A stretch of 64,000 bases of DNA from Anaerolineae bacterium (GCA_040767425.1 JAXGON010000006.1:54595-118594), one strand, 5' to 3'. Shown: positions 9,206 through 24,264, counted from the first letter of the stretch. Numbers and translations: made by a program. Notes: generated by a model from the sequence alone, not told the origin.

Positions 9206-10291
9206 ATGACCATGCTGCATAGCTTTGCCTATCCGACCAGGCTCAAGGTGGGGTGCATCGGCGCTGGTCGGCACGCTTTTCGCGACATCCTGCCCTGCCT
9301 AAGGTACCTGCCCATCGAGCTGGTCGCCCTAGCCGACCATGACCGCGAGCAAGGCATCGCCACAGCGTCGCTTTTCGGGGCCAAGCGGTTCTACCCGAAC
9401 CACAAGGCGCTGCTGGCCAAAGAGACGGCACTGGATGCGGTGCTGATCGTGGTGGGGCCTAACGAGCGGGGGGAGCCCGCTTACCCTGAGCTGGCCGCCG
9501 ACGCCCTCAGGGCGGGGTTTCATGTGTGGATCGAAAGTCCCTCTTGTGCGAATAGGGATGACGTCAAGACGCTGACCAACGCCTCTATGCGGGGCCGCAA
9601 GTTCATCCAGACCAACCTGAATGGCATGTTTATGCCCGCCTACCTCAAGGTGGGCGCGATCATCGAGAACCCCTCCTTTGGCAAGCCCTCTAGCTTTGTA
9701 ATGCGTTATCCCGCGCTGCTGCCGCCCGAGGCCTTTGGCAAGCCCTGCAAGGATGTGGGCTCTCTGCTGAGCGTCGTTCGTCCCTATGCCACCCTGATGC
9801 GCTTGTTCGGCGAGCCACGCGGCATGATGGTGGCCACTAACCCGCTCACGGGCGATGCGTGCATCACCTTTGGGTACCGATCCGAGCTGGTGGGCACCCT
9901 GCACCTCTGTGGCAACCAAGGCATGGGCGGGGCGCGCGAGCGGCTCGAAGTGATCGGGCAGGGGGCGCACGTGGTAGTGGAGAACGCTACCCGCGTGACG
10001 TACCATCGCCCCAGCCGCATCGAGTCCGACCCCGATCATCTGGATGCGACCGACTATTACGGGGCCGAGGCCGAGGCGCCTGTGGTGTGGGAGCCGCAGC
10101 TCTCGCAAGCGGCCGCCTACAACCAGCACTTGGTGATCCAGGGGTATCTGGGCAGTCTGGAACATTTCGCAACGCGGCTCCTGAGCAACGAGCCGCCGAA
10201 ATACGGCAATGTGGTGGACCTGCTGCATATCATGCTGGTCCTGCAAAAGATCCAAGAGGGTGAGCAGCGAACCTGGCTTAACCTCTACTAG
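9206..10291 (+). CDS. Gfo/Idh/MocA family oxidoreductase
   Basis: [10 protein letters not shown] Rossmann start; GFHVWIESP (EKP-like). Confidence 0.85.
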
Positions 10292-16380: not shown

Positions 16381-17441
16381 TCTGGCTGCGCTCGCCGCCC
16401 GATCACGGCAAGGCCGTTCTGCGGCAGGGCTTGCTGGATGGCGTCCACCTCCTCGGCAGAGAGGAACCCGTCCAGGAGCAGCGGCTTGTGGTCGAGCATC
16501 TTGGCAAAGGTGGGCAACAATTCGCGCCAATGCGGGGCGCTGGGCGGCGGATCCAACGACACCTGCAGGGCGGTGGGATAGGGTCCTTGCAGCAGCGTGT
16601 CGATCACGTGGAGCGATCCCGAATGCAGGTGCATGATGCTGTACTGGGCCACCTGGGCGGTGCGCAGATCCCACGGGGCCAGGCGATCGGCGTACAACCT
16701 GGACGAGGTGAGGGCAGAGGCATCGCATTGGGTGCGGACGGTGGTTCCTGGCGCCCAGATGCCGTACCAGTTCACCGAACCCCCGGCCAGGCGCGGGATG
16801 AGCGCTGCCTGCTTGCGCCATACCTCCTCAAAGAGCTCCGTGGTGTAGGCCAGCAGGGCCGAGAGCTCCTCGGGCTGATCATAGATGGCCAGGCACAACC
16901 GTTCGGCGCCCACCATCGCTTCGGCGATGTCGGCGGGGCCACGCATCAGCGTGTGGGCCACCGCCTCTCCTTCCGGGGCTGCCGCCACCATGCGCCGAAT
17001 GAGGTCGAGCAGCGCGTCTAGCCAGCCGTTCTGGCGCCACTCGGGTAGGCGTTCCAGGTCGCTCCAGTCGGAGAGCAGGGGGCGCGTGCGCATGGATCCG
17101 GCCCGGATCAGGGCGCGAATCTGGCAGCCCGCGATGGCCTCCATCCAAGGCAAACGGATGTAGGGGAGACGGGCTGGCACCAGATCACCACCGGTGGCGG
17201 TTGCCAGGCTGTCGCGGGGTGGATCTGCCAACCTGTCCAGGTCCAGCGACTCGGGCGTCAGGTCGATGTCCGCCTGAGCGAGGGAGCCGTCGGCCAGCGG
17301 CAACCAGAGGCTGGCCAGCTCGGGCTCGTAGGGGCGGGCGAACAGGCGGGCTCGGCCCTCCCACCATGCGGCGTGTTGCGCCAGGAGCTCAGGCCGATAG
17401 GGCGCTGCCGACTTTTGGGCGGACGACACGGGCTCCATCAT
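16377..17441 (-). CDS. UroD/MtaA-like TIM-barrel protein, function unknown
   Basis: RGPADIAEAMVG, LAIYDQPEE, QCDASAL and MHLH layout typical of the UroD/methyltransferase superfamily. Confidence 0.7.
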   Translation of the reverse strand: MMEPVSSAQKSAAPYRPELLAQHAAWWEGRARLFARPYEPELASLWLPLADGSLAQADIDLTPESLDLDRLADPPRDSLATATGGDLVPARLPYIRLPWMEAIAGCQIRALIRAGSMRTRPLLSDWSDLERLPEWRQNGWLDALLDLIRRMVAAAPEGEAVAHTLMRGPADIAEAMVGAERLCLAIYDQPEELSALLAYTTELFEEVWRKQAALIPRLAGGSVNWYGIWAPGTTVRTQCDASALTSSRLYADRLAPWDLRTAQVAQYSIMHLHSGSLHVIDTLLQGPYPTALQVSLDPPPSAPHWRELLPTFAKMLDHKPLLLDGFLSAEEVDAIQQALPQNGLAVIGRRAQPD

Positions 17442-18514
17442 GGCACATCCTCCCAGTCGGTCTCTTCCAGGCGGCGTCGCAGCTGTTCGGGCACCTGGCC
17501 CGTCTCCGAGAGGCGCTGGATGGCGTCGTCGGCGTCTCGGAAGCGGATCGGCTCGACGCCAAAGGCCTCGGCTTTGTCCAAGGGGATGGCCTCAATGGCC
17601 TCATCCTCGACGGGGCTGACGAGCTCGGCCAAGTACGCCTGGGCGCCGTCCAGGTCATCGACCAGCTGCGCGCCGGATTGGGTCCACGCCTGGATCTGGG
17701 CCTGGTCGCCGCGGCGCCAAACGGCCATGGGCACCCGTCCCCGCGCTAGCGCATCGTGGCCGGGCCAGTCCTCGGGCCCCGAGGGCGGCTCGATCAGCAA
17801 CCCGACTCCCGTCAGCGCCGCGACGATCTCGCGCCTGGCCTGGGCGCGTAGGTCCGAGAGCTCGGCATCGGGGGCATAGGGGCTGAGCACCAGCAGGCGT
17901 CCCTCCCGGAGCGGTACCTGGAAGCTGGTCAGCGCGGCAGCAAAGCGCTCGATGCCCAAAGGGAGTACAAACACGGCCGACCCGCCGGCGGCCAACGAAG
18001 CATTCATGGTCAGTCGCTCGACCCCCTCTTCGTAGCCGCCCACCAAGGCGGCCTCGAGGGGAGCGGTCCCCTGTCCTAACGCTTGCGCCAGCGCCTGCGC
18101 GGCGCCACTGGGCGAGGGGGCGCCCGTGATCCAGACGGCGGGCTCTGCGAGGAGCTCCAGCTCGCCTCGGTAAAAGAGATAGTAGGGCTGGTGTGTGGCG
18201 TCCAGTCGCGCAGCGAGGCGGTGAGGATAGGCGGCATCCTGTCTCAGGATGACGTGTACATCCTGCTTGGCCAGGGAGACGAGGCGCTGTTCCCAAGATG
18301 CCACCCGTTCGGCCTTTGCTAGCATTCTGGCCAGGACCGCTGGCGCCAGATCGAGGTGCTCGGTCAGATCGTCCACGCTCAAGCCCATGAACTCGCGCAT
18401 GGATCGCGCGTCCTCCAGGCACCAGCGCTGGAGCACGCGCTTGGCCGCTTTGCGTGGGATATCGTCCGCCTCGAGGATCGCTAGCCAGCTTGCCGCTTCG
18501 GTATGGTCGGCCAC
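17438..18514 (-). CDS. divergent DprA/Smf (SLOG)-like protein
   Basis: AAGGGGAG RBS plus GTG; YPHRL, LFYRGELELL, GGYEEGVE, VLPLGI and LIEP follow the DprA layout. Confidence 0.75.
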   Translation of the reverse strand: MADHTEAASWLAILEADDIPRKAAKRVLQRWCLEDARSMREFMGLSVDDLTEHLDLAPAVLARMLAKAERVASWEQRLVSLAKQDVHVILRQDAAYPHRLAARLDATHQPYYLFYRGELELLAEPAVWITGAPSPSGAAQALAQALGQGTAPLEAALVGGYEEGVERLTMNASLAAGGSAVFVLPLGIERFAAALTSFQVPLREGRLLVLSPYAPDAELSDLRAQARREIVAALTGVGLLIEPPSGPEDWPGHDALARGRVPMAVWRRGDQAQIQAWTQSGAQLVDDLDGAQAYLAELVSPVEDEAIEAIPLDKAEAFGVEPIRFRDADDAIQRLSETGQVPEQLRRRLEETDWEDVP

Positions 18515-18619
18515 AGCTCCCCCTTGTCTCCGAACACCACTGATCATTCTAGGGGCAGAGATTTCCGTGTCAACGCGTTCGGCCGTCGGCGCTCGGGCAT
18601 GGCCTCGGCAGCCAGAAGG

Positions 18620-18628
18620 TGGTATACT
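18620..18628 (+). promoter_or_regulatory. extended -10 promoter of the five-gene catabolic operon
   Basis: TGgTATACT ~50 nt upstream of the SDR start. Confidence 0.5.
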
Positions 18629-18679
18629 CGCGAACGGTGGCTCTAAGGCATCACGGAGCATGATGGGAGGTTGGTTGGG

Positions 18680-19423
18680 ATGCAAATAGATCTGAGCGGC
18701 AAGGGCGCCGTGGTCACGGGCGGCGCAGGGGGGATCGGAGAGGCCTGCGCGCGGATGCTGGCCGATGCTGGTGCCCGCGTCGTCGTGCTGGATATCAACG
18801 CCGAGGGGGCGCAAAGAGTGGCAGAATCGCTGCCTGGCGGCCTGGCCATCGCATGCGACCTGGGGGACGAGGCCTCGGTCAGGGCTTCTTGCGCCGCGGC
18901 TGTTTCGGCGCTGGGCGGAGTCGATATCCTGATCAACAACGCTGGCATCATCTCGTACCGTCAGGGTGTGCGGGCCGTCAGCCCAGACGAATGGGACCAG
19001 GTGCTGGATGTGAACCTGCGCGGCACCTTTTTGATGTGCCGAGAGCTGATCGATAGCATGAAGGAGCGCGGCTGGGGCAAGGTGGTGAACTTTTCCTCGT
19101 TGGCGGCGCGCGTGGGCGGCATCGAGGTGGGCATTCACTATGCCGCCTCCAAGGCGGGGTTGCTCGGCCTCACGCGGACGCTGGCCAAGGAGGGGGCGCC
19201 GCACGGCATCACGGTGAATGCGGTGGCTCCTGGCGTCATCGCCACGGGGCCCGTGCTGCGCCAGGTGGCCGACCACGAGGACGCCTATCGGCAGACCATC
19301 CCCATGGGCAGGCTGGGGCAGCCCGAGGATGTGGCTAGGGTGGTGCTGTTCCTATCGTCGCCGCTCTCGGATTATGTGACGGGGATCGTGATCGACGTCA
19401 ACGGTGGCATGTACATGGGGTAG
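18680..19423 (+). CDS. SDR family NAD(P)-dependent oxidoreductase
   Basis: TGGAGGIG, NNAG and YAASK motifs. Confidence 0.95.
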   Translation: MQIDLSGKGAVVTGGAGGIGEACARMLADAGARVVVLDINAEGAQRVAESLPGGLAIACDLGDEASVRASCAAAVSALGGVDILINNAGIISYRQGVRAVSPDEWDQVLDVNLRGTFLMCRELIDSMKERGWGKVVNFSSLAARVGGIEVGIHYAASKAGLLGLTRTLAKEGAPHGITVNAVAPGVIATGPVLRQVADHEDAYRQTIPMGRLGQPEDVARVVLFLSSPLSDYVTGIVIDVNGGMYMG

Positions 19424-19427
19424 GGGT

Positions 19428-20474
19428 ATGAACAACGCAACGATTCGCGTGGACGCAGAGGCCCTGAGGACGTTCGTGTCCAACGTTCTGCAAGCGGTTA
19501 AAGTGCCAGCGGCCGACGCTGATATCGTGGCCGACTGTCTGCTCACGGCAAACCTGTCGGGCATCGATTCGCATGGTGTGATTCGACTGGCTCATTATGT
19601 TCGGAGGCTCGAGAACGGCACCATTCGCACGCAGCCGCAGATCGACGTGCAGCGCACGGCGCCCTCGGTGGCGGTGGTCGACGGGGGGCATGGCCTGGGA
19701 CACGTGGTGACCCACCGCGCCTGTACCGAAGGGATGGCCTTGGCTCGCGAGACGGGCAGCGCTATGGTGTCCGTTCGCAACTCGAGCCACTTTGGCATGA
19801 CGGGATTCTATATCCTGCGAATGGTGGCTGAAGGGTTCATCAGCATGATGATGACGGCCACCGACGCTTTTCTGATTCCGTTCGGGGCCCGCAAGCCGTT
19901 CCTGGGCACGAACCCCATCGCTTTCGGCTTTCCCACGCCAGGCATCCCGCTGGTGCTGGACATGGCGACTACATCCATCCCCTACGGCAAGGTGGCCTTG
20001 GCCAAGACGGAGGGGCGCGAGATCCCCTCAGACTGGGGCCTGGACGAGGATGGCAACCCCACCACGGATCCCAACCGCATCGTGGGCCTGCACCCGATCG
20101 CGGGGCCCAAAGGCAGCGGCCTGGCTATGGTGATCGATATCCTCTGCAGCGTGCTCTCTGGGATGCCGTTTGGCCCCCACATCAACAAGATGTATGGTGA
20201 GATGGACCAGCCACGTCGGCTGGGGCACTTTATCTGTGTTTGGGATGTGCGCCGCATCATGCCGTTGGAGCGATTCATCGAGCGGATGGGTGAGGTCACG
20301 ACAGAGTTCCACGCGCTGCCGCCTGCCGAGGGGTTCGATCGGGTCTACTATCCAGGCGAGCTCGAGGGGCTGCGCCGTGAGGAGCGTCGGCGGCAGGGCG
20401 TGCCGTTGGATCCTGGGTTGCGCGACGAGCTGATCGAGCTTGGAAAGCGATTTGATATCGACTTTCCTGCCTAA
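19428..20474 (+). CDS. Ldh_2 family 2-hydroxyacid dehydrogenase (AllD/ComC-like)
   Basis: DSHG, SHFG, GTNPIAF, DMATT, AGPKGSGLA and VYYPG motifs. Confidence 0.93.
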   Translation: MNNATIRVDAEALRTFVSNVLQAVKVPAADADIVADCLLTANLSGIDSHGVIRLAHYVRRLENGTIRTQPQIDVQRTAPSVAVVDGGHGLGHVVTHRACTEGMALARETGSAMVSVRNSSHFGMTGFYILRMVAEGFISMMMTATDAFLIPFGARKPFLGTNPIAFGFPTPGIPLVLDMATTSIPYGKVALAKTEGREIPSDWGLDEDGNPTTDPNRIVGLHPIAGPKGSGLAMVIDILCSVLSGMPFGPHINKMYGEMDQPRRLGHFICVWDVRRIMPLERFIERMGEVTTEFHALPPAEGFDRVYYPGELEGLRREERRRQGVPLDPGLRDELIELGKRFDIDFPA

Positions 20475-20491
20475 TGAGAGGAGTCTCTGGG

Positions 20492-21544
20492 ATGCAACGC
20501 ACCATGCGGGCGTTGGTCAAGACCGCCCCTGGCGTCGGCAACGTGGCCATTCGCGAGGTCCCCGTGCGGGAGCCCAAGCGCGACGAGATCCTGATCAAGA
20601 TCAAGTACTGCGGTGTGTGCGGAACTGATCTGCATATCTATGCCGACGAGTTCCCCAACGATCCTCCTGTCATCATGGGACACGAATACTGCGGCACCAT
20701 CGTTCAAGTGGGCAGCGAGGCGGCCGACCGGTGGGCCGTGGGTGATCGGGTGGTGGGCGAGCTGCACACGGGTGCCTGCGGCACCTGCGAGCTCTGCTTG
20801 GCGGGCAAGCCCCATATCTGTGATAGCAAGCTGGCACTGGGCAGCCGCTACGATGGCGCCTTTGCCGAGTACCTCACGCTGCCAGCCTGGCTGGCTCACC
20901 GCATCCCCGAGGGCGTTCCATGGGAGATCGCTGGCATCACCGAGCCGTTCGCCATCACGGCCCACTGCCTGCTAGAGCGCGGTGGCATCGAGGGCGCGCG
21001 GAACGTGCTCATCAGTGGATCGGGGACCATGGGCCTGCTGGCGACCATCTGGTGCAGCCGCTTGGGGATCGAGACGATCATCATCTCGGGCACTGACCAA
21101 GATGTCCCTCGACGGTTCCCGCTGGCCAAAGCTATGGGGGCGACGCATGTGGTGAACGTCCAGCGTGAGAGCGTGGACGATGTGGTTAGGGGGATCGTGG
21201 GAACGCGAGGGGTGGATGCCTGGATCGAGTGTTCTGGTTCGTCAGCCGCCATCGCCGCAGGTATCCGCCTGACGAAAAAGACGGGCACCTGCGTGCTGAT
21301 CGGCCTGGTGGGCCCCGAGACCATCGCGGTCCCCTGGAATCAGATGCTCTACAAGGAGCTGGACCTGTTCGGATGCTTTAGCTCGCCGCCCAGCAGTTGG
21401 GAAAAGGCCTTGGCTGCAGAGCGCGAAGAGGCGCCCAAACTAGCCCAGTTGGTGCAGGTGCAGCCTCTTGACCGATGGGAACAGGCTTTTGACCAGTTGC
21501 GCCGTGGCGAGGTGGTCAAGACATTGCTCGACATGGAGGCCTAG
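20492..21544 (+). CDS. Zn-dependent medium-chain dehydrogenase (sorbitol/threonine DH-like)
   Basis: CGTDLH, GHE, structural Zn CxxCxxC...C and GSGTMG motifs. Confidence 0.93.
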   Translation: MQRTMRALVKTAPGVGNVAIREVPVREPKRDEILIKIKYCGVCGTDLHIYADEFPNDPPVIMGHEYCGTIVQVGSEAADRWAVGDRVVGELHTGACGTCELCLAGKPHICDSKLALGSRYDGAFAEYLTLPAWLAHRIPEGVPWEIAGITEPFAITAHCLLERGGIEGARNVLISGSGTMGLLATIWCSRLGIETIIISGTDQDVPRRFPLAKAMGATHVVNVQRESVDDVVRGIVGTRGVDAWIECSGSSAAIAAGIRLTKKTGTCVLIGLVGPETIAVPWNQMLYKELDLFGCFSSPPSSWEKALAAEREEAPKLAQLVQVQPLDRWEQAFDQLRRGEVVKTLLDMEA

Positions 21545-21997
21545 ATGTTCACTCGCATGGACCACGTCGCCATGAGCGTTCGCGACATGGAGGGCGCCAT
21601 CGCGTTCTACGAGGACGTGGTGGGCATGGAAAAGGTGTTCGATCGCACCTTTGACGAGCCCATGGCGCGGTTGATCGGCGTGCCTGGGACGGTGGTGCGG
21701 ATCGTGCACATGCGGTTTCATGACACTGTGCTGGAGCTGTTTCACTACGAGTACCCGCAGGGCCGTGAGCCGCGCCCCGATGCGTTGCAGAGCGACCTGG
21801 GTCTGATCCATATCGGCTTTATGGTGGAGGATTTCCACGGCACTTACCAGAATCTGGTCGATCGCGGGATCAGCTTTTTGGGCGAGCCCGTGGAGATTCG
21901 GCCAGGCGTGTGGGTGGCCTATTTCCGTGGCGTCGAATACGAGGTGTGCGAGATTCGCGAGATTCAGGCCCAGCCGACTGCATCGATTTCTCGATAG
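21545..21997 (+). CDS. VOC (glyoxalase/epimerase) family protein
   Basis: DHVA, LELF, IHIGF and CEIRE give H-E-H-E metal ligands. Confidence 0.88.
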   Translation: MFTRMDHVAMSVRDMEGAIAFYEDVVGMEKVFDRTFDEPMARLIGVPGTVVRIVHMRFHDTVLELFHYEYPQGREPRPDALQSDLGLIHIGFMVEDFHGTYQNLVDRGISFLGEPVEIRPGVWVAYFRGVEYEVCEIREIQAQPTASISR

Positions 21998-22029
21998 CGG
22001 GCAACGGCAACAGAAACGAGAGGTATCTC

Positions 22030-24207
22030 ATGCCTAGACTGGTCGAACGGGCGCTGACTGCCCGCTGCCAAAGCTTTGAGGCGACGCCAGATGATCTGGC
22101 GCGTATCCCCAAGCGGGACCTGGCCCGTATGCTCATGCTCCTCTATCTGGTGCGCGAGTTCGAGACGACGGTGCTGGATCTGAAAGAGCGCGATCTGGTG
22201 CACGGTCCCGCTCACACCAGCGTCGGGCAAGAGGCGATCGCAGCGGCGACGGCTACCGTCCTTCGCAAGAGCGATATGGTGGGCTCCACCCATCGCGCCC
22301 ATGGGCACTTTTGCTCCAAGGCCGTGCTCTACTATGCGCCCGATGCCTATGACCCCCTGAGCGACCCCTTTACCGACGACATGCAGCGGGCCGTCACCAA
22401 GACCCTGGCTGAGATCATGGGGCTGCGCGAGGGCTGGTGCGGTGGACGCGGCGGTTCCATGCACCTGTACGATGGTCGCTCGGGCAACCTGGGCAGCAAC
22501 GCCATCGTGGGCGGCGGCATCCCGCTGGCCACGGGCGCGGCCTGGGCCGAGAGGCTCCGCCAGCGCGATACGGTGGTGGTCTCGTTCTTTGGCGACGGAG
22601 CCATCAACCAGGGATGCTTCCACGAGGTTGCCAACATGGCGCGGCTATGGGACGTGCCGATCCTCTACTTTGTGGAGAACAACCGCTATGCCGTCGGCAC
22701 CAGCACCAAGGAGGCCTCCTGCCTGGAGGACCTCGGGCTGCGCAGCCTGAGCTATTGTATTCCTAGCTATATCGTCGATGGGATGGACCCCGTGGCGCTC
22801 TACTGGGCGATGCAGGACGTGACCGCGCGCATGCGCCAGGAGCCTGGCCCATTTTTCATCGAGGCCAAGACGTGGCGGCACTATCATCACGCGGGGCGCA
22901 TCCCTGGTAGCGCCTATGGCTATCGCACCAAAGCAGATGAGGCTGCGTGGTGGGAGCGTGACCCGCTGGCGCGCCTGCCGCGTGCGGCCATCGAGGCAGG
23001 GCTGCTCACCGAGCAGGAGGATGCTCGAATCCGCGAGGCGGCCGTCGCAGCGGTGGAGGTGGCTCGGCGGGCCTGTACAGTGGAAGCGGGCGATGTATGG
23101 AGCATCCCCGCGTCGGCTTGGCCCGATCCGTCCACCGTGGAGCAGGATGTGCGTGGCGCCGATACCTTGCCAGAGAGCGCGCGCGTGCTCGAGCGTGAGG
23201 CGATGGGGGCGTCGCGCACCGTCAGCTATGTCGAGGCCATCGCCGCTGTCACCGGTCGCGCCATGGAGCGAGACGAACGCGTGATCGTGCTGGGCGAAGA
23301 GGTGGCCAATCTGGGCGGCGGCGCTTACCAGGCCACCAAAGGCCTGGCGGAGGTCTTTCCTGGCCGAGTGATCAACACGCCGATCTCGGAAGCGGGCTTT
23401 GTGGGGATGGCTGGCGGCGCCGCCTCGGTCGGCCTGCGCCCCGTCGTCGAGATCATGTTTCCAGATTTTGCTCTCGTGGCCGCTGATCAGCTGTTCAACC
23501 AGATCGGCAAGCTGCGACATATGTATGGCGGGCGGGTGTCTTTTCCGCTGGTGCTGCGCACCCGCGTGGCTATCGGCTTTGGCTATGGCGGGCAGCATTC
23601 TTCGGATCCTGCGGCGCTGTTCGCCTTGTTCGCGGGATGGCGGGTTGTGGCTCCGTCCACGGCCTTTGACTATGTGGGGCTGTTCAATACCGCCATGCAT
23701 CTGGATGACCCCGTGCTGGTGCTGGAGCATGGGCAGTTGTACGCGCTCAAGTCCGAGATCCCCGTCGACGATCTCGACTACTATATCCCCTACGGCAGCG
23801 CCAAGGTGGTGCGCCCTGGCAAGGACGTGACGGTGCTGACCTACCTCACGGGCGTGCAGGATTGCGTTACCGCGGCAGAGGCGCTGGCCGCCGAGGGCCT
23901 GGAGGCCGAGGTGATCGACCTGCGCACGTTGGATTTCGGCGGCATGGACTGGGCGCTTATCGGCGCATCGGTAGCCAAGACGGGCAGCGTGTTGGTGGTG
24001 GAGCAGAACCCCCGCAGCATGTGCCTGGGAGACCGCATCGCGGGCGAGATCCAGCGGCGGTTCTTTGATGAGCTGGACTGCCCCGTGGCGACGGTCTCGG
24101 CGCCCGACGCACCCTATCCCGTGTCCAGGGCGCTCGAAACGGGCATGATTCCCTCAGTGGAGCGCATCCAGGATGCGATGGACCAGAGCGCCCGCCACCT
24201 GACCTAG
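22030..24207 (+). CDS. fused alpha/beta E1 subunit of a TPP-dependent 2-oxoacid/acetoin dehydrogenase
   Basis: HTSVGQEA, GDGAINQG...N TPP motif; beta half with NTPISE, GGQHS and VIDLRTL. Confidence 0.93.
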   Translation: MPRLVERALTARCQSFEATPDDLARIPKRDLARMLMLLYLVREFETTVLDLKERDLVHGPAHTSVGQEAIAAATATVLRKSDMVGSTHRAHGHFCSKAVLYYAPDAYDPLSDPFTDDMQRAVTKTLAEIMGLREGWCGGRGGSMHLYDGRSGNLGSNAIVGGGIPLATGAAWAERLRQRDTVVVSFFGDGAINQGCFHEVANMARLWDVPILYFVENNRYAVGTSTKEASCLEDLGLRSLSYCIPSYIVDGMDPVALYWAMQDVTARMRQEPGPFFIEAKTWRHYHHAGRIPGSAYGYRTKADEAAWWERDPLARLPRAAIEAGLLTEQEDARIREAAVAAVEVARRACTVEAGDVWSIPASAWPDPSTVEQDVRGADTLPESARVLEREAMGASRTVSYVEAIAAVTGRAMERDERVIVLGEEVANLGGGAYQATKGLAEVFPGRVINTPISEAGFVGMAGGAASVGLRPVVEIMFPDFALVAADQLFNQIGKLRHMYGGRVSFPLVLRTRVAIGFGYGGQHSSDPAALFALFAGWRVVAPSTAFDYVGLFNTAMHLDDPVLVLEHGQLYALKSEIPVDDLDYYIPYGSAKVVRPGKDVTVLTYLTGVQDCVTAAEALAAEGLEAEVIDLRTLDFGGMDWALIGASVAKTGSVLVVEQNPRSMCLGDRIAGEIQRRFFDELDCPVATVSAPDAPYPVSRALETGMIPSVERIQDAMDQSARHLT

Positions 24208-24235: not shown

Positions 24236-24264
24236 TTGACAGGGGAGCGGGTCACGCTTATAAT
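24236..24264 (+). promoter_or_regulatory. perfect-consensus promoter of the rplU operon
   Basis: TTGACA-N17-TATAAT. Confidence 0.9.

Follow-up and report, generated by a model that had tools for sequence, protein, structure and literature searches.

We analysed five adjacent genes on a 64,000-nucleotide stretch of DNA from an Anaerolineae bacterium (GCA_040767425.1, JAXGON010000006.1:54595-118594), the whole of which is referred to here as the window. The source genome bin is 2.07 Mb in size and 90.7% complete, its nearest protein relatives are labelled Anaerolineae, and metagenomes containing this stretch come from wastewater, anaerobic digesters and oil fields. The genes, all on the plus strand, encode a short-chain dehydrogenase/reductase (SDR), an Ldh_2 family oxidoreductase, a zinc-dependent medium-chain dehydrogenase/reductase (MDR), a vicinal oxygen chelate (VOC) protein and a thiamine diphosphate (TPP)-dependent E1 component in which the alpha and beta parts are fused in one frame (Table 1). 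A preliminary description of the locus had listed these five tightly packed families, including a VOC protein with His-Glu-His-Glu ligands and a fused E1, and all were confirmed by Pfam, by reading of the gene junctions and by conservation of the metal ligands.

Table 1. The five genes and flanking features, with positions in the window
Feature	Position	Strand	Remarks
DprA-like gene	17438-18514	-	Divergent, upstream of the operon
Divergent intergenic region, DprA-like gene to operon	18515-18670		Consensus matches and direct reading only
Minus-strand promoter-like site	18573-18546	-	Within the divergent intergenic region; consensus match only
Extended -10-like element TGGTATACT	18620-18628	+	Divergent intergenic region; consensus match only
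GGGAGG ahead of SDR start	18665-18670	+	Direct reading
SDR	18671-19423	+	adh_short_C2, 5.9e-64; likely start ATG 18680 behind GGGAGG; 247-250 aa
Ldh_2	19404-20474	+	Pfam Ldh_2, 1.3e-118; likely start ATG 19428
Zn-MDR	20474-21544	+	ADH_N + ADH_zinc_N; likely start ATG 20504
VOC	21545-21997	+	Glyoxalase, 2.2e-15; single domain pair; likely start 21545
Fused E1 alpha-beta	22030-24207	+	E1_dh + Transket_pyr + Transketolase_C in one frame; ATG 22030 behind GAGAGG; 725 aa
Sigma-70 consensus TTGACA-17-TATAAT, perfect match	24236-24264	+	Promoter of rplU-rpmA; downstream operon boundary

Counted from the likely start codons, the spacers from SDR to E1 are 4, 29, 0 and 32 nt, and no promoter-like site was seen inside the set by a consensus scan and a reading of the gene junctions. 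We infer that the five genes form one operon and are co-transcribed. An upstream GTG at 21910 is probably not used as the E1 start codon, because most orthologues are 725 residues long. In a crude-oil RNA library, exact contigs of 114-165 nt lie within the SDR and E1 genes at low depth; they are compatible with expression and are not proof of it, as DNA carry-over is possible, and they are silent on a single transcript. Downstream of the operon lie rplU, rpmA, rpmE and tdk, and the perfect sigma-70 consensus before rplU-rpmA is unusual for a genome of 65% G+C. Among the open reading frames (ORFs) scanned between 12.6 and 29.4 kb of the window, no transporter, regulator or allantoin family was found. 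The lack of a transporter and regulator, noted earlier, thus holds at the window but not as a general trait, as relatives carry GntR-FCD regulators, RhaT, TRAP and ABC systems.

Family assignments of the five proteins

The TPP/Mg motif GDG...ENN (GDG-x(25-27)-NN) of the fused E1 is invariant in all 78 subfamily sequences, as are the Glu of TPISE in the beta part and the His of the beta QHS motif. In the HH pair of the alpha part, the first His is kept in 77 and the second in 72 of the 78. From our knowledge of solved E1 structures, we take the Glu to be cofactor-activating and the histidines to serve in the reductive acylation of lipoamide. An insert of about 10 residues marks the subfamily, with 55-62 residues from RxHH to GGSMH (57 in 68 of 77 sequences) against 47 in a paralogue from the same genome. 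Fusion of the alpha and beta parts is the rule in the subfamily. The window protein reached 268.7 and 246.7 bits against the NCBIfam cut-offs of 454 and 393.85 for the beta and alpha subunits of pyruvate dehydrogenase (PDH), respectively, and its E1_dh score was 166 bits, compared with 292 bits for the paralogue. In the E1 tree, a clade of 33 rows carries the gene context of the window, and comprises Chloroflexota, Desulfobacteria and one metagenome-assembled genome (MAG) labelled Myxococcota. By these sequence features, the E1 is a member of a distinct subfamily with intact catalytic motifs. Public records name some members "2-oxoisovalerate dehydrogenase E1". Others (P0026, P0035 and the plasmid hit H1) are labelled "MFS transporter" though they carry only E1 domains, which looks like a spreading annotation error.

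For all five proteins, NCBIfam scores were set against the curated equivalog cut-offs. The SDR is closest to FabG, glucose 1-dehydrogenase, GolD/DthD, gluconate 5-dehydrogenase and BudC-type polyol/diol dehydrogenases, and passes only two models, PRK12826.1-2 and PRK07231.1, both of broad subfamily type. The SDRs adjoining E1 likewise score highest with FabG, and nearly equally with the glucose 1-dehydrogenase, BudC (meso-butanediol/acetoin), GolD/DthD and gluconate-5-dehydrogenase models. The MDR retains the catalytic zinc residues (Cys in CGVCGTDLH, His-Glu in GHEYCG) and a four-Cys structural site. It resembles threonine, sorbitol and idonate dehydrogenases and stays below each equivalog cut-off. 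Identity with L-threonine 3-dehydrogenase was rejected, the score being 231.8 bits against a cut-off of 380 and kbl (glycine C-acetyltransferase) not being among the operon genes; true tdh genes found on plasmids are just 34% identical to the window MDR.

The Ldh_2 protein belongs to a family of 2-hydroxyacid/2-oxoacid oxidoreductases and falls below the cut-offs for AllD (281.7 bits against 356 and 268.9 against 496 for two equivalogs), L-sulfolactate dehydrogenase of the ComC type (236.1 against 500), YbiC and YiaK. An AllD/allantoin identity was rejected on these scores and because no allantoin partner gene was present in the scanned ORFs. A sulfonate reading, of the type seen in the catabolism of 2,3-dihydroxypropane-1-sulfonate (DHPS), was also rejected, since partner genes were not found and the scores were under the cut-offs. 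The nearest solved structure to the Ldh_2 protein is 1VBI from Thermus. On plasmid pTT27 of Thermus thermophilus HB8 (64046-71623; L126), the gene for 1VBI lies in a cluster with the order IclR | TRAP-SDR-Ldh2-KdgK-SDR, beside eda, and this setting suggests that 1VBI has an uncharacterised sugar-acid function.

In the VOC protein, the metal ligands H7, E64, H89 and E136 are kept in 31-33 of 33 orthologues. These are the four ligands (H, E, H, E) that paired beta-alpha-beta-beta-beta modules supply in metalloenzymes of the glyoxalase I and methylmalonyl-CoA epimerase type. Identity with methylmalonyl-CoA epimerase itself was rejected, as the score was 34.8 bits against an equivalog cut-off of 114.95. 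Known relatives among VOC proteins carry out proton transfers on enediolates.

Genomic contexts of the E1 subfamily

An E1 probe found matches in 38 of 41 related genomes, with an orthologue of more than 60% identity in about 20; the 42% identical paralogue is also present in nearly all. The full order SDR-Ldh2-MDR-VOC-E1 recurs in 15 further species-level genomes of Chloroflexota from several genera, with identities of 60-96%, mostly 60-75%. Because the same order recurs in these genomes, the arrangement is not due to chance, and the set has been conserved as a unit across many Anaerolineae genera.

Neighbours within 7 kb of E1 were counted in 80 loci from species-representative genomes, 39 from the clade of the window and 41 from other phyla. 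Because ORFs in the fetched loci were called greedily, the longest first, the counts are approximate; many contigs stop near E1, and related genomes are not independent. In the clade of the window, VOC was present in 25 of the 39 loci, SDR in 23, and MDR and Ldh_2 in 18 each. Ldh_2 is missing in L050, L076 and L067, and MDR in L044, L049 and L064. The five-enzyme set of the preliminary description is thus a conserved unit, but its true core consists of E1-VOC and SDR, with Ldh_2 and MDR dispensable in several relatives. Within this E1 subfamily, VOC is the partner that stays constant.

Other genes enter the set in single lineages. In one Anaerolineae genome (L026), a gene for a PIG-L/LmbE-family deacetylase (9416-10123, minus strand) is inserted between MDR and Ldh_2, which may indicate that the substrate in that lineage is an N-acetylated sugar. 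Between VOC and E1, a 441-residue gene without a Pfam family occurs in L105 (7662-8984; corresponding to 10174-11499 of L034, minus strand), and in a protein atlas it falls among glycoside hydrolase (GH)-like proteins, close to GH123_N, DUF6259 and melibiase-like TIM barrels. Decayed remnants of this gene are seen in L025 (7274-7869) and L023 (7706-7942), and none in the 32-nt VOC-E1 spacer of the window. In L084, an aldehyde:ferredoxin oxidoreductase (AFOR) gene immediately precedes SDR-Ldh2-MDR-VOC-E1 on the same strand; overall, four loci of the clade have an aldehyde dehydrogenase (ALDH) or AFOR gene no more than 7 kb from E1.

A Chloroflexota-specific membrane protein of about 260 residues, without a Pfam family (L034:14918-15682, L025:2823-3617 and at least five further loci), is encoded divergently from the SDR in other genera; the DprA-like gene holds that place in the window. 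A transporter function was rejected for this protein, as its predicted fold resembles CPBP/Rce1 (TM 0.63), and the query found no match in the genome of the window. Two ORFs picked by length, of 501 residues in L024 and 323 residues in L029, had no Pfam family and proved to be opposite-strand artefacts in high-GC loci.

Beyond Chloroflexota, the subfamily is found at 57-64% identity in Desulfobacteria and related MAGs, and at 47-53% in MAGs labelled Planctomycetota, Spirochaetota, Ignavibacteriota, Bacteroidota, Latescibacterota, Lentisphaerota and Actinomycetes. Neighbouring ORFs were clustered and the representatives annotated. Among the 41 loci, SDR was near E1 in 26 and VOC in 18. An aldehyde enzyme was present in 28 (ALDH in 19, AFOR in 10) and often immediately adjoins E1. 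A LarA-type racemase was found in 17, a GntR-FCD regulator in 13, a PF04199 "cyclase" in 6, RhaT in 5, a D-2-hydroxyacid dehydrogenase (2HADH) in 4 and a GH78 rhamnosidase in 3. Further neighbours include Amidohydrolase_2, SMP-30 and metallo-beta-lactamase-type genes, possibly lactonases (four lactonase-type families in all), sugar solute-binding proteins, TRAP systems and enolase-superfamily dehydratases. The ALDHs come closest to 2-oxoglutarate-semialdehyde dehydrogenase and the LarA homologues to malate/lactate racemases, both under the cut-offs. In none of the 80 loci do LarA and Ldh_2 occur together, which suggests that either one can serve for a 2-hydroxyacid step.

In Planctomycetota and Bacteroidota, E1 is found with RhaT, GH78, an aldose-1-dehydrogenase-like SDR, a lactonase-type gene and ALDH, RhaT and GH78 lying beside E1 in Sedimentisphaerales; a spirochaete locus combines TRAP systems with enolase-type dehydratases. 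Taken together, the GntR-FCD, RhaT, TRAP and ABC systems of the relatives favour sugars or sugar acids over sulfonates.

Members with 43-48% identity and the same insert are encoded on plasmids of cultured Proteobacteria and Actinobacteria. Pseudomonas oryzihabitans has the order GntR | SDR-E1-VOC-E2-LpdA-ALDH, and Caballeronia insecticola GntR | ABC transporter-SDR-E1-VOC-E2-LpdA-SDR-shikimate-dehydrogenase-like. Phaeobacter inhibens has the order ABC transporter-SDR-SDR-E1-E2-shikimate-dehydrogenase-like-ALDH-LpdA. Rhodovulum, Paenarthrobacter and Rhodococcus opacus carry similar sets with E2 adjoining E1, and in R. opacus LpdA is nearby. ALDH is retained in the P. inhibens and P. oryzihabitans operons, which also hold E2 and E3.

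E2 adjoins E1 in only 3 of the 80 metagenomic loci. In a Desulfosarcina MAG (L067:9001-13855), the E1 alpha-beta protein is itself fused to an E2 with the E3-binding and catalytic domains and no lipoyl domain (1027 residues). The next gene encodes a lipoyl domain-E3 fusion, placing the swinging arm on E3 instead of E2, and is followed by a TRAP transporter. The genome of the window encodes exactly one E2, one clear E3 (contig C8) and two AFORs. The E2 gene, with lipoyl, E3-binding and catalytic domains, lies on contig C16 (L037:408-9842) directly after the paralogous fused E1 of 686 residues. Upstream of that E1 are an MDR-like ORF, an SDR, a mannitol-dehydrogenase-family gene and a PfkB kinase, and an E1 of this type is present in nearly all relatives.

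In a structural model, the peripheral subunit-binding domain (PSBD) of this E2 is predicted to span the C-terminal domains of two E1 beta parts, with contacts at residues 652, 679-684 and 723-725. The model score was 0.75 against 0.00 for the best control, a pass that may reflect likeness to similar complexes already solved and is no proof of binding. Among 78 solved complexes, 51 attain the mark applied, compared with 2 among 108 mismatched pairs. The runs agreed in 100% of contacts, with a partner pLDDT of 81, for what is a textbook-type pair.

Contig C18 of the same genome (L118:698-13627) holds a sugar oxidoreductase cluster in which an SDR gene is directly followed by one for a PF04199 "cyclase", the pair also found beside RhaT in Planctomycetota. 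The cluster further contains two genes each for GFO/IDH/MocA proteins, xylose-isomerase-like TIM barrels and aldo-keto reductases, one of the reductases having a 4Fe-4S domain, as well as an ALDH gene in divergent orientation. It could not be tied to the operon.

A candidate route and its rivals

We tentatively favour the view that the operon provides the lower steps of a non-phosphorylative route that breaks down a hydroxy-acid derived from a sugar (probably an aldonate or deoxy-aldonate), in which the E1 would cleave an acyloin in the manner of acetoin dehydrogenase. The NAD(P)-dependent SDR and the MDR would oxidize secondary alcohols, of one substrate or of two epimers, to an acyloin, whose stereochemistry or keto position the metal-dependent VOC protein would adjust by enediolate chemistry. 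The fused E1 would add TPP to the carbonyl and the adjacent C-C bond would be broken. The acyl fragment would pass to lipoamide on the C16 E2 and then to CoA, with E3 supplied from contig C8. The other fragment would be an aldehyde, oxidized by ALDH or AFOR in the relatives and here by one of the two AFORs, or reduced by the MDR. Ldh_2 would act on one of the route's 2-hydroxyacids, such as the product of aldehyde oxidation, a role that LarA and 2HADH may take elsewhere. Acyloin rather than 2-oxoacid chemistry, the use of a distant E2 and the VOC function are all parts of this proposal that we infer. The RhaT/GH78, lactonase-type, TRAP/dehydratase, GH-like and pTT27 contexts argue for sugars or sugar acids.

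For illustration only, a 5-keto(-6-deoxy)-aldonate might on cleavage yield a C2 acyl unit and a C4 semialdehyde. An analogous TPP-dependent reaction has been put forward, still tentatively, to explain tartrate formation: 5-keto-D-gluconate would give a C2 unit and tartaric semialdehyde, the latter then being oxidized by an enzyme resembling succinic semialdehyde dehydrogenase (PMC7970118).

The closest competitor, which we consider possible and somewhat less likely, is an ordinary 2-oxoacid dehydrogenase route. Here SDR and MDR would produce a 2-hydroxy-aldehyde, from which ALDH or AFOR (in the relatives) would make a 2-hydroxyacid. LarA would racemize this acid, or Ldh_2 or 2HADH oxidize it, and E1, E2 and E3 would decarboxylate the 2-oxoacid to an acyl-CoA one carbon shorter. 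The same logic underlies the conversion of DHPS via sulfolactate into sulfopyruvate, and that of propanediol via lactate into pyruvate. The Ldh_2 family does make 2-oxoacids, and its frequency in the clade of the window, together with those of LarA and 2HADH in other phyla, fits such a scheme. The mutual exclusion of LarA and Ldh_2 is as expected if the two perform one step in different ways, GntR-FCD regulators typically control hydroxy- and oxo-acid regulons, and the annotation and scores of the E1 are of the PDH or branched-chain 2-oxoacid dehydrogenase (BCKDH) type. However, the commonest direct neighbour of E1 is a polyol/diol-type SDR and not a 2-hydroxyacid dehydrogenase. Many loci consist of E1, SDR and ALDH or AFOR without any 2-hydroxyacid enzyme, and the proteobacterial SDR-E1-VOC-E2-E3-ALDH operons lack Ldh_2, LarA and 2HADH. 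The VOC protein would have a natural task on an acyloin and none in the 2-oxoacid scheme. The aldehyde enzyme stays beside E1 even in operons with E2 and E3. For these reasons acyloin cleavage is favoured. The earlier suggestion that dehydrogenases feed a TPP-dependent cleavage remains the most reasonable logic, but its 2-oxoacid step does not stand as the preferred choice. Acyloin cleavage fits at least as well, because an aldehyde enzyme is nearly always near E1 in other phyla, also beside E2 and E3.

An E1 that works without E2, either as a non-oxidative 2-oxoacid decarboxylase or as a transketolase-like lyase whose aldehyde product goes to the MDR for reduction or to AFOR/ALDH for oxidation, would account for an operon without E2 or E3, for the rarity of E2 next to E1 in metagenomic loci and for the aldehyde enzymes immediately beside E1. 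We regard it as improbable, because the lipoamide-acylation histidines are conserved and relatives are linked to E2, as in the Desulfosarcina fusion and on six plasmids, four of which also carry LpdA. For the same reasons, the window protein is probably the E1 of a dehydrogenase complex, relying on an E2 from another locus, rather than a free decarboxylase. The genome of the window has such an E2; five of five E1-bearing genomes of other phyla that were checked also have E2 genes elsewhere, and as all five do, this check does not discriminate an E2-free mechanism.

More doubtful still is the absence of any single pathway, with an SDR-Ldh_2 sugar-acid pair simply lying beside an MDR-VOC-E1 unit, or with the E1 being a PDH/BCKDH isozyme among incidental neighbours. 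The losses of Ldh_2 or MDR in several relatives, the insertions of PIG-L (L026) and of the 441-residue gene (L034), an E1-only subclade in Anaerolineae and the occurrence of the SDR-Ldh_2 pair alone in Thermus, with TRAP and KdgK, would agree with this. A chance juxtaposition of two units is nonetheless disfavoured by the order of the five genes, kept in at least 15 species genomes despite mostly 60-75% identity. The E1-VOC-SDR association also extends over more than eight phyla, and a second E1 in the genome of the window, more canonical in type, comes with an E2 of its own.

Several observations weigh against the acyloin route that we favour. None of the five proteins passed an equivalog cut-off, and, as stated earlier, the sequence does not reveal the substrate. 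Acyloin-cleaving E1s cannot be told apart from those acting on 2-oxoacids by their catalytic residues. Ldh_2, LarA or 2HADH occurs in 37 of the 80 loci, which fits a 2-hydroxyacid converted to a 2-oxoacid that feeds E1 at least as naturally, and the aldehyde enzyme could act upstream, from alcohol via aldehyde to acid, and not on the product of E1. E2 and E3 are not among the operon genes, and the sharing of one E2 between two E1s is an assumption. On the Pseudomonas and Caballeronia plasmids, the metal ligands are missing from the VOC proteins beside E1, and the subclade without partner genes comprises seven Anaerolineae orthologues. In the rhamnose-linked contexts, the E1 is only about 50% identical and may serve another substrate.

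A broader idea, bolder and rather unlikely as it stands, is that the subfamily constitutes a lipoamide-dependent keto-sugar-acid lyase/dehydrogenase that replaces the dehydratase-aldolase pair in an oxidative route, as yet undescribed, for aldonates or 6-deoxyhexoses, with VOC as an acyloin epimerase/isomerase, in anaerobic polysaccharide degraders of many phyla and on proteobacterial plasmids. An example would be the conversion of a 5-keto(-6-deoxy)aldonate to acetyl- or glycolyl-CoA and a C4 semialdehyde, oxidized to a tartrate-like diacid. If the sugar-acid reading of the operon is right, thiamine/lipoamide E1 enzymes would gain a role in sugar-acid breakdown that no described pathway gives them. 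Hundreds of genes that now bear the name "2-oxoisovalerate dehydrogenase E1", or even "MFS transporter", in Chloroflexota, Planctomycetota, Spirochaetota, Ignavibacteriota, Bacteroidota and Desulfobacteria would obtain a function, and a VOC protein family a defined partner. It would also explain how abundant fermenters in digesters and sediments, using neither kinases nor aldolases, obtain acetyl-CoA and reduced ferredoxin from deoxy-sugars or aldonates. Because compact operons with this subfamily also occur on plasmids of cultured Phaeobacter, Caballeronia and Pseudomonas, the function is accessible to direct genetics.

Comparison with known systems

A literature search found no characterised pathway of this composition, in line with the earlier view that the route is undescribed. 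ComC belongs to the Ldh_2 family. With the HpsO/HpsP/HpsN system of DHPS catabolism, the operon shares an SDR and MDR pair and an Ldh_2-family enzyme, and it is possible that the pair converges on one keto compound by analogy with HpsO and HpsP. Unlike that system, HpsN-like proteins, desulfonating enzymes and sulfite exporters were absent among the genes annotated in the 80 loci.

The IdnD (MDR)/IdnO (SDR) and 5-ketogluconate-to-tartrate route (PMC7970118) likewise combines an MDR and an SDR leading to one keto-aldonate, a TPP-dependent cleavage and a semialdehyde dehydrogenase. The window proteins, however, reach only 119 bits against a cut-off of 469 for IdnD and 186 against 279 for gluconate 5-dehydrogenase, so that the analogy is one of logic only, and the cleaving enzyme proposed for the tartrate route is a transketolase and not an E1.

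The non-phosphorylative L-rhamnose and L-fucose pathways (LRA1-6; the Campylobacter fucose locus) resemble the Planctomycetota and Bacteroidota contexts with RhaT, GH78, SDR, lactonase-type genes and ALDH. The loci nevertheless have no recurring sugar-acid dehydratase, aldolase or FAH-type hydrolase, and contain E1, LarA and a second SDR instead; the window has no rhamnose-specific genes.

The alpha2beta2 E1s of pyruvate and branched-chain 2-oxoacid dehydrogenases (PDB 1W85, 1UMD and 2OZL) share with the window E1 the Pfam architecture, the catalytic motifs and, if the structural model is right, the PSBD-binding surface. The window protein differs in being under the PDH cut-offs, in its fusion, in an E2 that does not adjoin it and in its neighbourhood.

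Acetoin dehydrogenase systems (AcoA/AcoB/AcoC/AcoL), together with butanediol dehydrogenases, are known in aerobes and in the anaerobe Pelobacter carbinolicus. Unlike them, the window E1 has fused alpha and beta parts, an insert of its own, no E2 or E3 in the operon and a constant VOC partner. Ldh_2 or LarA is present, and the context is one of sugar acids and rhamnose without acetoin regulators. The likeness, judged by architecture and gene content, lies in the heterotetramer-type TPP-dependent E1 with alpha and beta domains, in the upstream diol-type SDR and MDR dehydrogenases, in the dependence of relatives of the window E1 on E2 and E3, and in a neighbouring aldehyde-oxidizing enzyme as expected for the splitting of an acyloin. 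The operon thus places an E1 of the acetoin/2-oxoacid dehydrogenase type in a new and widely distributed catabolic setting.

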